Positions 3,616 through 57,198 of a DNA stretch of 64,000 nt are shown here, piece after piece (within the stretch, counting starts at the first letter, position 1; each line of letters opens with the position of its first letter). A model generated the notes under the pieces. The model was not told the origin of the DNA and made no database searches. It was given only the letters and a program-made list of their open reading frames with translations. This DNA comes from Chloroflexota bacterium (GTDB lineage Bacteria > Chloroflexota > Limnocylindria > P2-11E). A program made the translations under genes and the position numbers. The stretch is from the NCBI GenBank assembly GCA_005887995.1, contig VBJD01000030.1, positions 2,025-66,024 on the forward strand, read 5' to 3'.

Positions 3616-4296
3616 TTGTCACCCGCTCAGGCGACACGCAGCCGCCGCGTATACATTCCGGACGTGCCCGTCGCTTCGCGCCCAGGGGCCCCTCCCCCTG
3701 AGCCGGACGTCGTGGTGATCGCCGCCGGCGACGCCCTCCTCGAAGATCCGCCGCGCACGCATCACGTGAATGTCTTCGCCATTGCCAAGCGTCCCGTCAC
3801 CAATAGCGAGTTCGCCGAGTTCGTGAAAGTGACATCGCATCGCGCGGAGCGCTGGACCGAGGGACCCGCGGATCACCCGGCCGAGGGGATCTCGTGGCCG
3901 GACGCCGTCGTCTATTGCCGCTGGCTCTCGACCGCGACCGCGCGCATCTACCGCCTGCCTGACGAGCGTGAGTGGGAGAAGGCCGCGCGCGGAGGGAAGG
4001 GACAACGCTGGCCGTGGGGCGACTCGGAGGACCCGACGCGGGCGAACACGCGCGAATCGGGCCTCCGTGGGACGTCGCCCGTCGGTGCGTATCCGGCCGG
4101 CGCGTCCGCGGATGGTGTGCTCGACCTCATCGGCAACGTGCGCGAGTGGACGAACACCTGGGCCGACGGTCGCGTCATGCGTGGCGGGTCGTACCTCGAC
4201 CCGATGGCGGAGTGCATCCCCTCGCGGCGCATGCGGCTGAGCGCGGATCTTCGCGGGCACGGCTTTCGCGTCGTGCGCAGCATGACTGGAAGATGA
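3616..4296 (+). CDS. Formylglycine-generating-enzyme (SUMF1/EgtB-like, FGE-sulfatase) domain protein
   Basis: KRPVTNSEFAEFV, ISWPDAVVYCRWLS, RLPDEREWEKAARGG, GNVREWT, RGGSY, GFRVVR. TTG start is uncertain. The last 4 codons plus stop lie in a repeated junction sequence. Confidence 0.8.
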   Translation: MSPAQATRSRRVYIPDVPVASRPGAPPPEPDVVVIAAGDALLEDPPRTHHVNVFAIAKRPVTNSEFAEFVKVTSHRAERWTEGPADHPAEGISWPDAVVYCRWLSTATARIYRLPDEREWEKAARGGKGQRWPWGDSEDPTRANTRESGLRGTSPVGAYPAGASADGVLDLIGNVREWTNTWADGRVMRGGSYLDPMAECIPSRRMRLSADLRGHGFRVVRSMTGR

Positions 4297-4345
4297 GCGA
4301 GGAGTGGCTCTGCCACCCAAGACGAGTCCGCGCGCGCGAGTGACG
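4282..4345 (+). repeat. Partial junction element copy D (FGE-like|asparaginase-like)
   Basis: ATGACTGGAAGATGAGCGAGGAGTGGCTC (4282..4310) matches 57058..57086 at 28/29 positions. The downstream GACGAGTCCGCGCG resembles AGCGAGTCCGCTCG of copy A. The GC-palindrome core is absent. Confidence 0.55.
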
Positions 4346-18171: not shown

Positions 18172-18291
18172 AGTTGGAGTACGCGTGATGGTCAGCGTGC
18201 TGGCGATGCCCTCTCTCCCCTTGCCGCTGTACGCGCGCTTCGCGCGCTAGAGAGGCCCCAGCCCCTCCGGCGACGATGAGGATACGACTCG

Positions 18292-20908: not shown

Positions 20909-21393
20909 GGATCGGCGTCGCGGCCGATCACGCGGGCCAGCGGCTGAAGGACATGCTCGTCGCGCACCTTCGATCGAGGGGCCACGACGTGCGGACATAC
21001 GGACCACTGTCCGAACCAGAGGATGATTACCCGCTCATCGCGCGCGTGCTGGGGGAAGCGGTGCAGCGCGGCGAGGTGGAGCGCGCGGTCTTCTGCTGCG
21101 GCTCGGGCATCGGCCCGGCCGTTGCGCTCAACAAGATGAGCGGCATCCGCGCGGCGGTCGTCGACAACGAGTGGAGCGCGCGCGACGCGGTGAGGCACGT
21201 CGACGTGAACGTCCTCACGCTCGGCGAGCGCGTGATCGGCGAAGAGCTCGCGAAGAGCCTCGTGGACGCGTACCTTGGAGCCCAACCCGAAGGCGGACGC
21301 CACGACAGACGCCGGAAGCAAATTTCCGAACTGGAACGAGCGACGAGCAGTTCAGGGGCAGGGGCCCCTGTTCAGCGAGCGCAGCGAGCGTGA
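20905..21393 (+). CDS. rpiB: Ribose-5-phosphate isomerase B
   Basis: MRIGVAADHAG, FCCGSGIGPAVALNK, EGGRHDRR. ATGA overlap with tsaC. The last ~20 codons lie inside repeat copy A. Confidence 0.9.
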   Translation: MRIGVAADHAGQRLKDMLVAHLRSRGHDVRTYGPLSEPEDDYPLIARVLGEAVQRGEVERAVFCCGSGIGPAVALNKMSGIRAAVVDNEWSARDAVRHVDVNVLTLGERVIGEELAKSLVDAYLGAQPEGGRHDRRRKQISELERATSSSGAGAPVQRAQRA

Positions 21394-21449
21394 GCGAGGA
21401 GCGAGTCCGCTCGTGGCAGTGACAACGAGCGGTTGAACAGGAGGGGCGT
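21328..21449 (+). repeat. Junction element copy A (rpiB|glyA)
   Basis: Contains the 26-mer CAGGGGCAGGGGCCCCTGTTCAGCGA (21353..21378), identical to 57086..57111, then GCGTGAGCGAGGAGCGAGTCCGC...ACGAGCGGTTGAACAGGAGG. Confidence 0.7.
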
Positions 21450-23018
21450 ATGAGCTTGTTGTCGCAGTACCTCGAGCGCGTCGGTGACCGGTCGCCGGAT
21501 CCCGCACCCGCCGCGCTGTACGCGATGCTCGATCACATCGCCACCGTCTCGCCGAGCGTGGCAGCCGCCATCGTGCATGAGTTCAGCGATCAGCGGACGA
21601 ATCTCAAGCTCATCGCCAGCGAGAACTATTGCTCGCTCGCGACCCAGTTCGCGCAGGGCACGTTGTTCACCGACAAGTACGCCGAGGGCTATCCGGCCCA
21701 TCGCTTCTACGCGGGTTGCGACAACGTGGACGACGTCGAGAGCGAAGCGGCGCGGCTCGCGTGCGAGCTCTTCGGCGCGGAGCACGCGTACGTGCAACCC
21801 CACTCGGGTGCGGATGCGAACCTGCTCGCGTACCTCGCGATCCTCGCAACGCGCGTCGAGGAGCCGCTGCTCGAGAAGATCGGCGTCGAGGATCCCACGA
21901 AGGTGTCCAGCGCCGACTGGGCGCGCGTCCGCGAGGCGACGCACAACCAGCGGATGCTCGGACTCGACTACTACTCGGGTGGACACTTGACGCACGGCTA
22001 CCGCCACAACTATTCGAGCCAGCTCTTCGACGCGTATACGTACACCGTCGATCGCTCGACGATGCTGCTCGACCTGGACGAGATCCGGCGGCAGGCGCGT
22101 GAGATCAAGCCACTTGTGCTGCTCGCCGGCTACAGCGCCTACTCGCGGAAGATCGACTTCGCGAAGATGCGAGAGATCGCTGATGAAGTCGGCGCCGTCC
22201 TCATGGTCGACATGGCCCACTTCGCGGGCCTGGTCGCGGGTGGGGTCTTCGAAGGGAACTACAACCCTGTGCCATTCGCACACGTCGTCACGACGACGAC
22301 GCATAAGACGCTGCGCGGTCCGCGCGGCGGCATGATCCTGTGCACGTCCGAGTTCGCGGAGGCCGTGGACAAGGGTTGCCCGATCATCCTGGGCGGACCG
22401 TTGCCACACGTGCTCGCGGCGAAAGCGGTCGCGCTGCGGGAGGCGAGCCAGCCGAGCTTCCGCGACTACGCGCGTCGCATCGTCGAGAACGCGCGGGCGC
22501 TCGCCGAGGCGTGCGTCTCAGAGGGCATGGACGTCCTCACCGGCGGTACCGACAACCATCTGCTGCTCATCGACGTCCATCGGAGCTTCGGGCTCACCGG
22601 ACGGCAGGCGGAGTCCGCGATCCGTTCGTGCCACATGACGCTGAACCGCAACGCGCTGCCGTTCGACGCGAATGGGCCCTGGTACACGAGCGGGCTACGC
22701 GTGGGGACGCCGGCGGCGACGACGCTCGGGATGACCCCCGCCGACATGCGCGAGATCGCCGCGGTGTTCAAGCTCGTCCTCGCGAACGCGAAGGCCGCGA
22801 CCGTGCAAAAGGGAGCCGACGCCGGACAACAGAGCCGCGCGCGCTTCGAGCTCGCACCTCGCGCCGCGGAGGCGGCTCGCGAGCGCGTCGCCGCGCTGCT
22901 CGGTCGTTATCCCGTCTATCCGGAGATCGATCTCGACCTGCTCGGCGCCGCGGCACGCGACTGGGGCGATACCGCGAGACCGGCGTCTGCGATGAAGGCG
23001 GCCGCGGCAGTCCGCTGA
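21450..23018 (+). CDS. glyA: Serine hydroxymethyltransferase (long form, 522 aa)
   Basis: LIASENY, TDKYAEGYP, TTTTHKTLRGPRGGMIL (PLP lysine). Confidence 0.95.
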   Translation: MSLLSQYLERVGDRSPDPAPAALYAMLDHIATVSPSVAAAIVHEFSDQRTNLKLIASENYCSLATQFAQGTLFTDKYAEGYPAHRFYAGCDNVDDVESEAARLACELFGAEHAYVQPHSGADANLLAYLAILATRVEEPLLEKIGVEDPTKVSSADWARVREATHNQRMLGLDYYSGGHLTHGYRHNYSSQLFDAYTYTVDRSTMLLDLDEIRRQAREIKPLVLLAGYSAYSRKIDFAKMREIADEVGAVLMVDMAHFAGLVAGGVFEGNYNPVPFAHVVTTTTHKTLRGPRGGMILCTSEFAEAVDKGCPIILGGPLPHVLAAKAVALREASQPSFRDYARRIVENARALAEACVSEGMDVLTGGTDNHLLLIDVHRSFGLTGRQAESAIRSCHMTLNRNALPFDANGPWYTSGLRVGTPAATTLGMTPADMREIAAVFKLVLANAKAATVQKGADAGQQSRARFELAPRAAEAARERVAALLGRYPVYPEIDLDLLGAAARDWGDTARPASAMKAAAAVR

Positions 23019-34180: not shown

Positions 34181-34714
34181 ATGTTCGGCAGTCCGCTCGC
34201 CGCGGAGCCCGCGTTCTCACTCACGGTGGATCCGTATTGGATCCTCGTCTCGCTCGTCCAGTTCCTCATCCTTTATTGGCTTCTGCGCCGGTTCCTCTGG
34301 GTGCCGGTCACGAAAGCGCTCGAGACGCGCGCCGCGAAGATCCGTGAAGGCCTCGAGCTGGCCGAAGAGGCGAGGCTCGATCGCGAGCGGCTGAAGCAGG
34401 AGGTCGAAACGCTACTGGCCCAGGCGCGTGCGGAAGCAAACGCGATCGCCGACCGCACAGCGCAGGCGGCCGAGGCGGCTGCGGCCGCGACGCGCGCCGA
34501 GGCGAAGACCGAGGCCGATCGCCTGCGCGAGCGCGGGAGGCTCGACGCGCGACAGCTCCACGATCAGGCGCTCGCGCAGCTCCGCGGCGAGCTCGCGTCG
34601 ATGGTCGTCCTCGCGGCGAGTCGGCTCCTCGGGCGAGAGATCAGCGCCGAGCAACATCGCGCGCTGATCGAACAGTCGCTCAGCGAGGCGGGATCGGAGC
34701 TGCGGAAGAACTAA
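34181..34714 (+). CDS. atpF: F-type ATP synthase subunit b
   Basis: N-terminal TM helix followed by a long Ala/Glu/Arg coiled coil; operon position. Confidence 0.85.
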   Translation: MFGSPLAAEPAFSLTVDPYWILVSLVQFLILYWLLRRFLWVPVTKALETRAAKIREGLELAEEARLDRERLKQEVETLLAQARAEANAIADRTAQAAEAAAAATRAEAKTEADRLRERGRLDARQLHDQALAQLRGELASMVVLAASRLLGREISAEQHRALIEQSLSEAGSELRKN

Positions 34715-34825
34715 CGTGAGCGACGAGCGATTCATTCGCGAGGAGCGAACTCCACGAGCGGTGTCGAGGCGGCGAGGCGCAAGCCGCCGCAGGCAGGCCA
34801 AGCCGAGCGCGAGGAAGAAGAACTA
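34705..34825 (+). repeat. Related junction insert copy E (atpF|atpH), bounded by exact 9-nt direct repeats
   Basis: GAAGAACTA at 34705..34713 and 34817..34825. Internal GTGAGCGACGAGCGA and ACGAGCGGT resemble copy A. The hairpin is different (GGCGGC...GCCGCC). Confidence 0.5.
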
Positions 34826-34826
34826 G

Positions 34827-35357
34827 ATGGCAGCCGGCTCGGGCGCGCGGCGTTACGCGGAGGCGCTCCTCGACATCGCGACCGAGGAGCGTGCTGTGGC
34901 GGCGTATCGCGAGTCGCTCGATGCGTTCGCGACGGGTCTCGACCCCGAGAACATCCGCGGACTGCGTGACCAGCGCGTGCCTTTCGACCGGCGCCGCGCG
35001 GCGCTGGATGCCGCGACCGCGCGCGAACCGAAGGCGATACGCGCCCTCATGGCGATCCTGCTGGAACGCGATCGGATCGAGATCGTGCCCGGGATCGCGC
35101 GCGCATTCGGTGAGCTCGTCGACCGCCGCGAGGGCATCGTCAAGGCGAAGATCACGACGCCGGTCGAGATCGCCGCGTCAGAGCGTGACGAGCTGGTGCG
35201 CCGCCTCGAGCAGGCCAGCGGGAAGAAGATCCGCGCGACGTTCCAGGTGGATCCCGCGCTCATCGGCGGCGCAAGAGTGCAGCTGGGGGATCGGCTCATC
35301 GACGCGTCCCTTCAAACGCGGCTTGAGCACCTCGCGCGCGAGATGGCGAGCAGCTAG
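34827..35357 (+). CDS. atpH: F-type ATP synthase subunit delta (OSCP)
   Basis: [13 protein letters not shown]-terminus, [20 protein letters not shown]. Confidence 0.85.
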
Positions 35358-35367
35358 GAGAGAACGC

Positions 35368-36927
35368 ATGGCAGGAAGATCGTCCGAGATCACGGACATC
35401 ATCAAGGCGCAGATCAAGAAGTTCGAAGGCAAGGCGGAGTCCGTCGACGTCGGCACCGTCGTCGAGATCGGTGACGGCATCGCGCGGATCCACGGTCTCG
35501 CCGGCTGTCTCGCCTCCGAGCTGCTCGACTTCGGCCACGACACGTTCGGCCTCGCGTTCAACCTCGAGGAGGACACCGTCTCGGCGATCATCCTCGGTGA
35601 CTACCAGCAGATCAAAGAGGGCGATGAGGTCAAGACGACCGGTCGCATCATCGAGACGCCGGCGGGTCCGGAGCTCATCGGCCGCGTCGTCGACCCGCTC
35701 GGGCGGCCGCTCGATGGCAAGGGTCCGATCAACGCGAAGCACTTCCAGCGCGTCGACGTCGTCGCGCCGGGTGTGATCGCGCGGCAGAACGTCGACACGC
35801 CGGTGCAGACGGGCATCAAGTCGATCGACGCGATGTTCCCGATCGGCCGCGGTCAGCGTGAGCTGATCATCGGCGACCGCGCGACCGGGAAGACCGCGAT
35901 CGCTGTCGACACGATCATCAACCAGAAGGGCCAGGACCTCGTCTGCATCTACGTCGCGATCGGCCAGAAGGAGTCGACGGTCGCGAAGATCGTGGCCACG
36001 CTCGAGGAGCACGGCGCGATGGAGCACACCATCGTCGTGATCGCGGGCGCATCCGACTCCGCCACGCTCCAGTACCTCGCGCCGTTCGGTGGCTGCGCGA
36101 TGGGCGAGTACTTCCGTGACAAGGGCGAGGACGCGCTCGTCGTCTACGACGACCTCACGAAGCACGCCTGGGCATATCGCCAGGTCTCGCTCCTAGTGCG
36201 CAGACCTCCGGGACGCGAGGCATATCCCGGCGATGTCTTCTACCTGCACAGCCGCCTGCTCGAGCGCGCGGCCCGCATGAACAAAGCCCAAGGCGGCGGC
36301 TCGCTCACGGCGCTTCCGGTGATCGAGACGCAGGCGAACGACATCTCGGCCTACATCCCGACGAACGTCATCTCGATCACCGACGGCCAGCTCTTCATGG
36401 AGCCGGACCTCTTTAACGCGGGCTTCCGCCCCGCGATCAACCCGGGCCTCTCAGTCTCCCGCGTCGGCGGCGACGCGCAGCGGAAGATCATGAGCCGCGC
36501 GACACGCGGCATGAAACTCCAGCTCCAGCAGTACCGCGAGCTCGCCGCCTTCACGCAGTTCGGCGCGTCGGACCTCGACAAGGCGACGCTGCAGCTGCTG
36601 CGGCGCGGCGAGCGCATCAGCGAGGTGCTGAAGCAACCGCAGTACTCACCGATCCGTCTCGACCACGAGGTCGCGATCCTCTTCGCCGCGAACCGTGGCT
36701 ATCTCGACGATGTGCCGAAGGAGAAGTGCGCGGATTTCGAGCGCGATCTTCGCCGCTACATGGACGGGCAGGGCAAGCAGCTGTCGGAACAGCTCCTCGC
36801 GAAGCCGAACGAATGGAACGACGACATCGAGAACGCGCTGAAGAAGGTCATCGAGGACTTCAAGAAGGCGCATTCGTACGGCGAGCAGCCGAAGCCTGCG
36901 CAGCCCGTGGCCGCGGGAGCGCGCTAG
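35368..36927 (+). CDS. atpA: F-type ATP synthase subunit alpha
   Basis: [10 protein letters not shown] Walker A, VGGDAQ. ATG 35368 lies inside the longer track ORF. Confidence 0.95.
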
Positions 36928-36953
36928 CTCATGCGCGCTGAGGCGAGGGTCTA

Positions 36954-39300
<2,347 letters not shown>

Positions 39301-39301
<1 letters not shown>

Positions 39302-39720
39302 TGCCCCTTCATCTCGAGGTCATCACGCCCGAGCGCAAGGTCTACGAGGACGACGTGGACATGGTCATCGCACCCGGCAGCGAGGGCTACCTCGGGATCC
39401 TGCCGCATCACGCGCCGCTCCTCACGGCGCTCGGGCCGGGCGAATTCCGCGTGAAGAAGGGCGGCGTCGAAGAGGTGCTGGCCGTCTTCGGCGGGTTCAT
39501 GGAGGTGCGGCCCGATCGCGTCGTCGTGCTCACCGAGGCGGCCGAGCCGGCCGAGGAGATCGATACGGCCCGCGCCCAGGCCGCTCGGGCGCGTGCGCAG
39601 GAGACGCTTTCACAGGCCGCAACGCTCTCGGCGGCCGACGAGGCGCGCGCTCGCGCGGAGCTCCAGCGCGCGCTGGTGCGGCTCCGCGTCAGCGAGCGGA
39701 GGCGTCCGCGGCGCACCTAG
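39301..39720 (+). CDS. atpC: F-type ATP synthase subunit epsilon
   Basis: LEVITPERKVYEDDVDMVIAPGSEGYLGILPHHAP. Confidence 0.9.
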
Positions 39721-39725
39721 CAGAC

Positions 39726-39821
39726 AAGGGAGCGCAGGGCTAGAGTTGTCGCGCGAACAGGGGCGGGGATCCCTGTTCAGCGAGCGGAGCGAACGTCAAG
39801 ACGCGACGCTCGGCATGGCGG
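39726..39821 (+). repeat. Junction element copy B (atpC|YVTN gene)
   Basis: CAGGGGCGGGGATCCCTGTTCAGCGA (39758..39783) matches the A/C 26-mer at 23/26 positions. Hairpin GAACAGGG...CCCTGTTC at 39755..39778. Confidence 0.6.
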
Positions 39822-56349: not shown

Positions 56350-57072
56350 ATGCGCGTCGATGTGCTCGGCGTCGGGTTCGACGATCTCGATCTGACCGCG
56401 GCCGTCGACCGGATCCTCGAACGTCTCGATCGCGGCGAGCGCACCTTCCTCATCACCGCGAACCCCGAGTTCGTGATGCTCGCGCGTCGGGACGACGAGC
56501 TCGCGCACATCGCGCGCGAGGCCGACCTCGTCGTGCCGGACGGCACCGGGGTCGCCGTCGCGTCGTCGCTGCTCGGCTCCGCGATCCCCCGTGTGCCAGG
56601 CCGACTGCTGGTCGACGCGCTCGTTCCACTTCTGGCGGAGCGCGGCGCGACGCTCTTCCTGCTGGGCGCGGCGCCCGGCGTCGCCGAGCGCGCCGCGGAG
56701 ACGCTCCGTCGTCGCGTTCCCGACGTGCGCATCGCGGGCAGCTACGCCGGATCGGCGGACGATCACGGCGACACGGCGTCGCGCGTGCGCGCCGCTGCGC
56801 CGTCGGTCGTGCTCGTCGCGTTCGGCATGCCGAAGCAGGAGCAGTGGATCGCGCGCAATCTGGATGCGCTCCCTAGCGTTCGTCTGGCGATCGGCGTCGG
56901 CGGCGTCTTCGATCAGCTCGCCGGCGTCCGCAAGGTGCCGCCGGCGCTCGTGCATCGCCTCGGCCTCGAGTGGCTGTGGCGTCTGATCCGCGAGCCGTGG
57001 CGCTGGCGCAGGCAGCGCGTTCTGCCGCTCTTCGTCGCGCTGGTGCTGCGCAAGCGGATGACAGGAAGATGA
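56350..57072 (+). CDS. WecG/TagA/CpsF-family (GT26) glycosyltransferase
   Basis: ITANPEFVM, LVVPDGTGV, FGMPKQEQW, EWLWRL. The last 4 codons plus stop lie in a repeated junction sequence. Confidence 0.9.
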   Translation: MRVDVLGVGFDDLDLTAAVDRILERLDRGERTFLITANPEFVMLARRDDELAHIAREADLVVPDGTGVAVASSLLGSAIPRVPGRLLVDALVPLLAERGATLFLLGAAPGVAERAAETLRRRVPDVRIAGSYAGSADDHGDTASRVRAAAPSVVLVAFGMPKQEQWIARNLDALPSVRLAIGVGGVFDQLAGVRKVPPALVHRLGLEWLWRLIREPWRWRRQRVLPLFVALVLRKRMTGR

Positions 57073-57198
57073 GCGAGGAGTGGCTCAGGGGCAGGGGCCC
57101 CTGTTCAGCGACCGAAGGGAGCGTGCACGACGAGTGAATCCACCAGCCTTGAGCGGTCTCGCGGCGGAGCCGCGAGATTGGGCATGACAGGAAGATGA
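57058..57198 (+). repeat. Junction element copy C (wecG-like|GT4), bounded by exact 15-nt direct repeats
   Basis: ATGACAGGAAGATGA at 57058..57072 and 57184..57198. Core 26-mer at 57086..57111. Confidence 0.75.

Follow-up and report, generated by a model that had tools for sequence, protein, structure and literature searches.

The Rickettsia palindromic elements (RPEs; Ogata et al. 2000) lie between genes and also, in frame, within unrelated housekeeping genes, and the summary of them in PMC10969869 assigns them no known transposase. On that summary, they share with the repeat described here a restriction to one lineage, a palindromic build and the addition of a tolerated peptide to host proteins whose open reading frames (ORFs) stay intact, and they differ in being ∼100–150 bp long, AT-rich and found in obligate intracellular Alphaproteobacteria. 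The repeat studied here, which we call the core, is 40 nt long (net gain, 36 nt) and ∼70% GC, has no stop codon in five of its six frames, is nested in a second repeat family and belongs to free-living soil Chloroflexota. The small dispersed repeats (SDRs) of cyanobacteria, which Elhai and colleagues are said to have described in 2008, are reportedly 21–27 nt long with hairpin-forming parts, nest in other repeats and in genes, and are said to be mobile without a dedicated enzyme, by a mechanism that is reportedly not established. The core resembles SDRs as a dispersed repeat of under 50 nt with hairpins, nesting and no dedicated enzyme, and differs in sequence, size and phylum. We know of no SDR for which a GNA mini-hairpin, a helix with tandem G·A pairs or the replacement of 4 nt by 40 nt has been described. 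In function, the core is comparable to RPEs, which insert in frame without a transposase, and to SDRs, for which the 2008 paper (Genome Res 18:1484) is cited in PMC3116915.

The BIMEs of Escherichia coli, the BOX elements of pneumococci, ERIC sequences and the Correia elements of Neisseria are modular hairpin mosaics that are co-transcribed with their flanking genes, and Correia elements, like MITEs, have inverted terminal repeats and target duplications. The elements described below also consist of interchangeable hairpin modules, but they are unrelated to these mosaics in sequence and have no inverted terminal repeats or target duplications. MIRUs, which Supply and colleagues are said to have described in 1997, are reportedly tandem direct repeats without hairpins that lie in operon junctions. 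The longer element in which the core is nested (the long, or host, element) likewise lies in operon junctions, mostly in sense orientation and abutting stop and start codons, and some of its copies keep a stop/start chain; it differs from MIRUs in its hairpins and in the near-random frequency of that chain (7 observed against 4.6 in shuffled spacers). The modular hairpin build of BOX and ERIC repeats is documented in PMC10969869. REPs and REPINs associated with RAYT proteins (PMC3116915) are, like the core, short, GC-rich, mostly extragenic hairpins that multiply in bursts within genomes and probably form their structure in single-stranded DNA (ssDNA), whereas the core lacks a RAYT (26 genomes), a GTAG head and inverted doublets and has in-frame intragenic copies. 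Finally, the mini-hairpin DNA studied by Hirao and colleagues, GCGNAGC (with CCGAAGG as a known variant), is extraordinarily stable and nuclease-resistant as DNA but far less stable as RNA, and it occurs at ssDNA priming sites, among them the phage G4 origin, RSF1010 ssiA (CCGAAGG) and the phage N4 promoters (PMC13037366). The second hairpin of the core is likewise GCGNAGC or CCGNAGG; those occurrences, however, are individual functional sites within the ssDNA of phages or plasmids, whereas the core is a dispersed chromosomal repeat. Our search of the published literature found no work on repeats of Limnocylindria.

The window, that is, the whole stretch of DNA analysed here, comprises 64,000 nt (C124:2025-66024) of a metagenome-assembled genome (MAG) of an uncultured soil Chloroflexota, Ca. 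Limnocylindria (3.02 Mb in 231 contigs, 68% GC, 87% completeness), and was compared with 25 congeners (26 genomes in the genus). A preliminary description of the window had singled out a 26-mer, CAGGGGCAGGGGCCCCTGTTCAGCGA, with a hairpin and shared flanks, at three loci and in one orientation. We reproduced exact copies at 21353-21378 and 57086-57111 and a copy with three mismatches at 39758-39783, all on the + strand; no match arose in 100 dinucleotide shuffles. The 26-mer proved to be the 5′ part of the 40-nt core, which contains the hairpin already noted and a second one, both with compensatory changes, and the shared flank blocks are real as well, being the arms of the larger, modular long element.

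An alignment of 41 cores (A1) defines the order of parts as hairpin 1, NNGGGG-NAGG-GGCCCCNN (across the alignment, NNGGGG(N)AGGG(G)CCCCNN), the spacer TTCAGCGA, and hairpin 2, GC-GA-[GCGNAGC]-GA-GC, with TG after it. Hairpin 1 closes a loop of the AGGG type with a GC stem, and four versions of its outer pairs are seen: CA/TG, GA/TC, CG/CG and GG/CC. In hairpin 2, where tandem G·A pairs flank the mini-hairpin, the positions closing the triloop always pair, as G-C in 27 copies and as C-G in nine, while all four bases are observed at the loop position N; by sequence, this hairpin fits the definition of mini-hairpin DNA (GCGNAGC, or C-G-closed variants such as CCGAAGG). Over the whole structure 97% of cells are paired, and double changes occupy 27 cells compared with 5.4 in shuffles (0/500), a signal that is lost when the pairing partner is slid; since the covariation is partly borne by two or three subfamilies, the independent compensatory events in the core are few. 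No terminal inverted repeats were found in the cores of this alignment. In copy 1 (21353..21392, + strand; 71.3 bits with R1, a covariance model of the core), hairpin 1 spans 21353-21370 with a CAGGGG/CCCCTG stem, the spacer 21371-21378 and the hairpin 2 region 21374-21389, with the mini-hairpin GCGCAGC at 21379-21385. Variant-B copies, for example C159:1742-1844 and C38:1852-1953, are nested double cores with four GGGG tracts, and their pattern GGGG-CA-GGGG-CCCGA-GGGG-NN-GGGG is a canonical G-quadruplex-forming pattern on the element strand.

Searches of the whole genome identified nine exact cores, 27 within two mismatches and ∼43 within five. R1 gave ∼54 matches in the MAG and 0–29 in each of 24 congeners, 23 of which had matches, so that the family extends well beyond the three loci first noted. 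Within the taxonomic family, the core is common in its own genus, sparse (1–4 copies) in one sister genus and sporadic elsewhere, and R1 found no convincing match in other families of the class. When 185,579 species genomes were scanned for GGGGNAGGGGCCCCNNTTCAGCGA, the 25 loci found were all in Chloroflexota / Candidatus Limnocylindria soil MAGs. The copies are mostly single; the one inverted pair, on contig C99, is ∼380 nt apart. For three of 43 cores, a contig end is no more than 300 nt away. Rfam had no match on the window at gathering thresholds and none at E<=1 on the two elements; the motif thus does not belong to a known structured RNA, which the preliminary description would have counted against its reading.

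The window holds three more cores besides the two at which the 26-mer is exact. The third copy of the 26-mer belongs to a solitary core without long-element arms in the spacer between atpC and the next gene (39755..39797, + strand; 49.7 bits with R1), whose hairpin 1 is extended (GAACAGGGG/CCCTGTTC); this copy has no alignable counterpart, the spacers of congeners being unrelated. On the − strand, a degenerate intergenic core (GAGGGGCTGGGGCCTCTC..GCGCGAAGCGCGC) lies at 18224..18270 (36.7 bits, E 2.6e-6), and a truncated one at 3661..3703 (30.5 bits) has an intact hairpin 1 and retains GCGAAGC while TTCAGCGA is absent.

A simple codon-usage method called 2,938 genes covering 90% of the genome. 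Of 43 cores placed on this gene map, 26 fall between genes and 17 within predicted ORFs (9 antisense, 8 sense), ∼10 of them deep within long genes for prolyl-tRNA synthetase (ProS), isoleucyl-tRNA synthetase (IleS), CarA, FtsK, an endonuclease/exonuclease/phosphatase (EEP) protein, a xanthine-dehydrogenase FAD subunit (XDH) and others; the share of cores in ORFs is put at about 31% to 17/43, compared with a 90% coding genome. Thus, the earlier statement that all copies are located between genes of the same strand is true of the three window copies but not genome-wide, and the operon-junction preference ascribed to the 26-mer is not its own: it belongs to the second, older host element, while the core also occurs in frame inside genes in both orientations.

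In order to compare filled and empty sites, congeners were searched with queries from which the element had been excised, and the orthologues retrieved were aligned. Empty sites in relatives, which the preliminary description had proposed to look for, are present in these alignments. The insert is exactly 36 nt in ProS, IleS, EEP and FtsK and 39 nt in CarA, most congeners having none; the host frames of ProS, IleS, CarA, FtsK, EEP and XDH are intact, and orthologues without the insert exist. The net gain of 36 nt, or 12 codons, therefore keeps the reading frame. Two other species have a core at the IleS site as well, and a third has an independent insertion nearby in the opposite orientation; the FtsK site is also filled in one other species, and the XDH site holds zero, one and two cores across three species. 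Compared with the Pseudomonas aeruginosa ProRS (PDB 5UCM), the ProRS insert forms a clean gap. Antisense cores add peptides of the type ..TLA(S/T)LAEQGPLPLG.. and sense cores ..QGQGPLFSERSER...

One recent event could be resolved to the base. One locus is present as two alleles, at the end of contig C205 and at the start of C220; they are 98% identical, with four SNPs in ∼190 nt, and differ as GGGGCCC-CTGT-TCAGCG versus GGGGCCC-[40-nt core]-TCAGCG: 40 nt came in, 4 nt (CTGT) went out, and no target-site duplication is present. The same arithmetic fits the insertions in genes and those in the host element, where TCAC, TCAT or TCGC was replaced. Boundaries are exact for this event only; elsewhere they were drawn across orthologues of 70–88% identity and carry an ambiguity of 0–4 nt, offsets of 0 to +4 scoring equally. 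CC lies directly 5′ of the insertion point in six of six empty sites outside the host element, a count that depends on the alignment chosen. The first 110 nt of C205 and the first 210 nt of C220 share this locus, indicating strain heterogeneity in the MAG, and the repeat probably broke the assembly here.

In the long element, a small hairpin X stands between a left arm, CGAGCGA[C/G]GAGCG, and a right arm, CGA[G/C]GAGCGAGTCC (in a longer form, CGCGA[G/C]GAGCGAGTCC); after the latter comes one of three or more right-arm types, every one of which has a hairpin of its own. Of 54 long elements, ∼33 are core-less, and in 21, across all right-arm types, a core replaces the 4-nt loop of hairpin X. In an alignment of 28 core-less copies (A2), the arms pair in the order C-G, GA/AG, G-C, C-G, GA/AG, C-G, GA/AG, then stem X. 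Every G and A position of the three tandem G·A pairs is invariant, whereas seven of the nine Watson–Crick pairs show double changes (30 cells compared with 8.0 in shuffles, 0/500), for example a C-G to G-C swap that turns GACGAG..GAGGAG into GAGGAG..GACGAG. The covariance model of the head, R2, matched all 40 genomes of the taxonomic family that were tested (seven genera, 1–42 copies each), and outside the family gave marginal matches only, in five of 81 genomes from other families of the class. The family-wide presence of R2 indicates that the host element is older and more widespread than the core.

Two core-bearing long elements lie in the window. Copy 1 (21337..21436, + strand), at the junction of rpiB with an SHMT-like gene, comprises a left arm (21337-21352), the core, a right helix arm (21393-21408) and a type a right arm with a GAGTGACAACGAGCGGTTGA-like end (21409-21436). 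Copy 2 (57073..57183, + strand), between a wecG-like gene and a GT4 gene, comprises a left arm (57073-57085), the core (57086-57125), a right helix arm (57126-57141) and a type b right arm (57142-57183) with the hairpin TCTCGCGGC-GGA-GCCGCGAGA. Two stretches earlier listed as partial relatives are real relatives and resolve into core-less long elements, both on the + strand. The first (4297..4339, GCGAGGAGTGGC-TCT-GCCAC..GACGAGTCC..) has a head that is the sibling of that of copy 2 and occupies a junction that is empty in congeners; the second (34715..34826; 60.7 bits with R2) lies within the atp operon and has its head helix at 34715-34753 and a type c right arm that reaches the ATG at 34827. 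The ATP synthase operon (34181-39720) thus has a core-less long element between two of its genes and the solitary core right after atpC. Short tandem duplications of long elements or of the right-arm motif (GAGTGACAACGAG..GGTTG), with a period of ∼74–85 nt or 20–25 nt, were seen at C117:16779-16890, C221:44074-44198, C71:31461-31547 and C215:25704-25790, indicating that the long-element family also varies in a VNTR-like manner.

The junction of copy 1 is bare in many congeners, the rpiB stop overlapping the next ATG, and is occupied by different variants in others (a core-bearing element in G011, a core-less one in G020 and other variants in G013 and G014). In the window, the rpiB frame runs into the element and stops at the TGA at 21391-21393; the last ∼18 rpiB codons (..RATSSSGAGAPVQRAQRA*, 21337-21393) are therefore element-encoded, while the native tail of congeners is ..AMEATKV* or longer. 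The syntenic slot after rpiB holds two different SHMT-type genes. The one in the window (21450-23018) is an SHMT-like gene of 519–522 aa with a ∼45-residue N-terminal extension (MSLLSQYLERVG...NLKLIASENYCS), a form seen in four species (our own, G002, G017 and G023; loci L002-L004), and in most congeners (loci L011-L025) that position is taken by a canonical glyA start (MSHLEREDPEIY...IELIASENYTS).

At the wecG/GT4 junction, simulated excision of copy 2 aligned colinearly in 25 of 25 congeners, all of which are empty. Copy 2 is flanked by a 15-mer, ATGACAGGAAGATGA, whose left copy (57058..57072, + strand) makes up the final four codons and the stop codon of the wecG-like gene, where congeners have a CTGCTCGGCCGATGA-like sequence, and whose right copy (57184..57198, + strand) provides the ATG of the GT4 gene. 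A 15-bp target duplication was considered and rejected: the 15-mer is foreign to this site and matches, at 14 of 15 positions, a native 15-mer, ATGACTGGAAGATGA, at 4282-4296 (+ strand). In all congeners that sequence is conserved as the 3′ end of gene 3712-4296, and in the window it directly precedes the core-less element at 4297..4339, so that it is joined to the same element head. Copy 2 thus moved with host flank, which argues for a recombinational or copy-choice component and against a precise transposase cut.

Three further ideas were set aside. At copy 1, an overlapping NTGA stop/start chain that links rpiB to the next gene and for which the R2 motif GAGTGACAACGAGCGGTTGA seemed designed had suggested a translational-coupling ‘frame funnel’. 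Such a chain works at nine of 29 element junctions compared with 59 of 693 others and, by eye, in four of five variants at the rpiB junction, but it is present in seven of 24 junctions when 4.6 are expected from dinucleotide shuffles of the spacers; being near the shuffle expectation, it appears not to be special to the elements. An integron attC was considered as a structured site at gene 3′ ends, but inspection by eye found no GTTRRRY/RYYYAAC ends and housekeeping neighbours. GC skew as a guide to replication orientation was uninformative (skew ∼0.01, uncorrelated; 19 of 43 cores on the G-rich strand).

We conclude, with a probability of roughly 70%, that the core is a recently active, non-autonomous 40-nt mini mobile DNA element whose hairpins act in ssDNA and which falls outside known families. 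On this reading, the core would have multiplied recently in one soil Ca. Limnocylindria genus and more sparsely in a sister genus, each insertion adding 40 nt and removing ∼4 nt, for a net 36 nt that keeps the frame in genes. Its commonest site is the loop at the tip of the older junction element; that element is family-wide and fills the space from one gene's stop codon to the next gene's start, mostly in sense orientation. The strand on which the GNA mini-hairpins and the G·A helix lie may fold as ssDNA, for example during replication, and insertion may be aimed at exposed loops or CC-flanked sites. The idea of loop targets rests on the hairpin X alignments and on three of six gene sites; a test for direct complementarity of the bases flanking the core, as expected of a hairpin-loop target, gave no excess over random at zero offset and was set aside. 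Copying could be performed by a trans-acting enzyme or by host replication, recombination and repair, such as template switching at hairpins, which would explain why copy 2 carries 15 nt of host flank. Purifying selection would then leave copies in non-coding DNA and in tolerant protein loops, as suggested by the small number of cores in ORFs despite a 90% coding genome.

A bolder version, which we put forward tentatively, is that the core is ultra-small mobile DNA of a new kind, able to do without its own transposase and copied as an ssDNA cassette by template switching during replication; the junction element would be both its landing pad and a second parasite of the same type. The cassette, held by its GC hairpin and by a GCGNAGC mini-hairpin resistant to nucleases and SSB, would replace ∼4 nt at exposed hairpin loops or CC-flanked sites, and the tandem G·A helix would structure the landing pad. 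With its net gain of 12 codons, such a core could colonise essential genes and write a Gly/Pro-rich loop into their proteins.

The rival that survives best, although we consider it doubtful, is that the elements are functional RNA modules of operon mRNAs, serving processing, stability or the docking of RNA-binding proteins, that were spread by recombination and left the gene copies as by-products. Of the long elements, 50 of 54 lie between genes; where the two neighbours are co-directional, the count is 25 sense to nine antisense (11:0 for those with a core). Sense elements start 0–9 nt past the upstream stop and end a few nt short of the next start codon. The junction preference is therefore a trait of the host element and a bias rather than a rule. 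This tight fit and sense bias, the family-wide conservation of the tandem G·A helix with covariation, and the stable predicted RNA folds are all in keeping with RNA modules, but the z-scores of those folds reach only −1.8 to −2.5, congeners have the same junction either empty or filled by other variants, and cores inside ORFs have no orientation bias. Rfam recognises no such module, and the RNA form of GCGNAGC hairpins is far less stable than the DNA form (PMC13037366). Nor do the hairpins act as intrinsic terminators, as had been proposed, since they lack a following U tract; neither terminator-like nor promoter-like sites were found at the three window copies. A role or constraint at the RNA level would account equally well for the sense bias of the long elements, and such a role of the long element could coexist with the core being mobile DNA.

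It is improbable that the core is an ordinary MITE, that is, a deletion derivative of an insertion sequence (with a DDE or other transposase) that is present in the population and missing from the bins. MAGs often lose mobile genes, insertion sequences among them, and our enzyme screen covered the Y1 transposase and RVT_1 families; the core is also non-autonomous, polymorphic and multicopy, and short direct repeats, including the ATGA stop/start overlap, flank some long elements. Against a MITE, the core has no terminal inverted repeats, loses 4 nt in place of gaining a target duplication and, at 40 nt, is far under the usual MITE size, and the 15-bp repeat at 57058/57184 is flank carried from another locus, not a duplicated target. 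Of the earlier suggestion of a REP/MITE-like family, what stands is a dispersed, hairpin-bearing family of ∼54 copies; a strict REP does not, for want of a RAYT in the 26 genomes of the genus. A classical REP/REPIN family moved by a RAYT (Y1 HUH), or a palindrome-associated element derived from IS200/IS605, is indeed largely refuted and in our estimate highly improbable: the elements are short, GC-rich, hairpin-forming and mostly extragenic, with a conserved single-stranded motif (TTCAGCGA, 3′ of hairpin 1) beside the hairpin, but the RAYT/Y1 HUH transposase (PF01797) scored in none of the 26 genomes and in six of 14 control genomes, there is no GTAG-type 5′ head, the copies are single rather than inverted doublets, and 4 nt are removed in place of insertion 3′ of a fixed tetranucleotide. 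Least probable, and very unlikely indeed, is RNA-mediated (retro) insertion of structured mRNA pieces, to which the host flank co-mobilised upstream of one element and the sense bias of long elements might point, but which is opposed by 0/26 genomes of the genus with an RVT_1 reverse transcriptase, by the lack of poly-A or variable target duplications and by cores in genes in both orientations.

We rate the core as a new family in an uncultured class, unusually small, with a defined 40-in/4-out signature and unusual G·A-rich structures. In its host element, three tandem G·A pairs form the basis of a conserved nucleic-acid helix. For the annotation of Limnocylindria MAGs, the finding means that 12-residue inserts, altered C-termini (as in rpiB) and contig breaks stem from the repeat. 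Beside RPEs and SDRs, the core offers a third, independent case of tiny repeats that enter essential proteins without a recognisable transposase. It is a case that is easy to read, with 40 nt, covarying hairpins, filled and empty sites between species and between strains and one base-resolved event, so that the old question of how such mini-elements move becomes testable.
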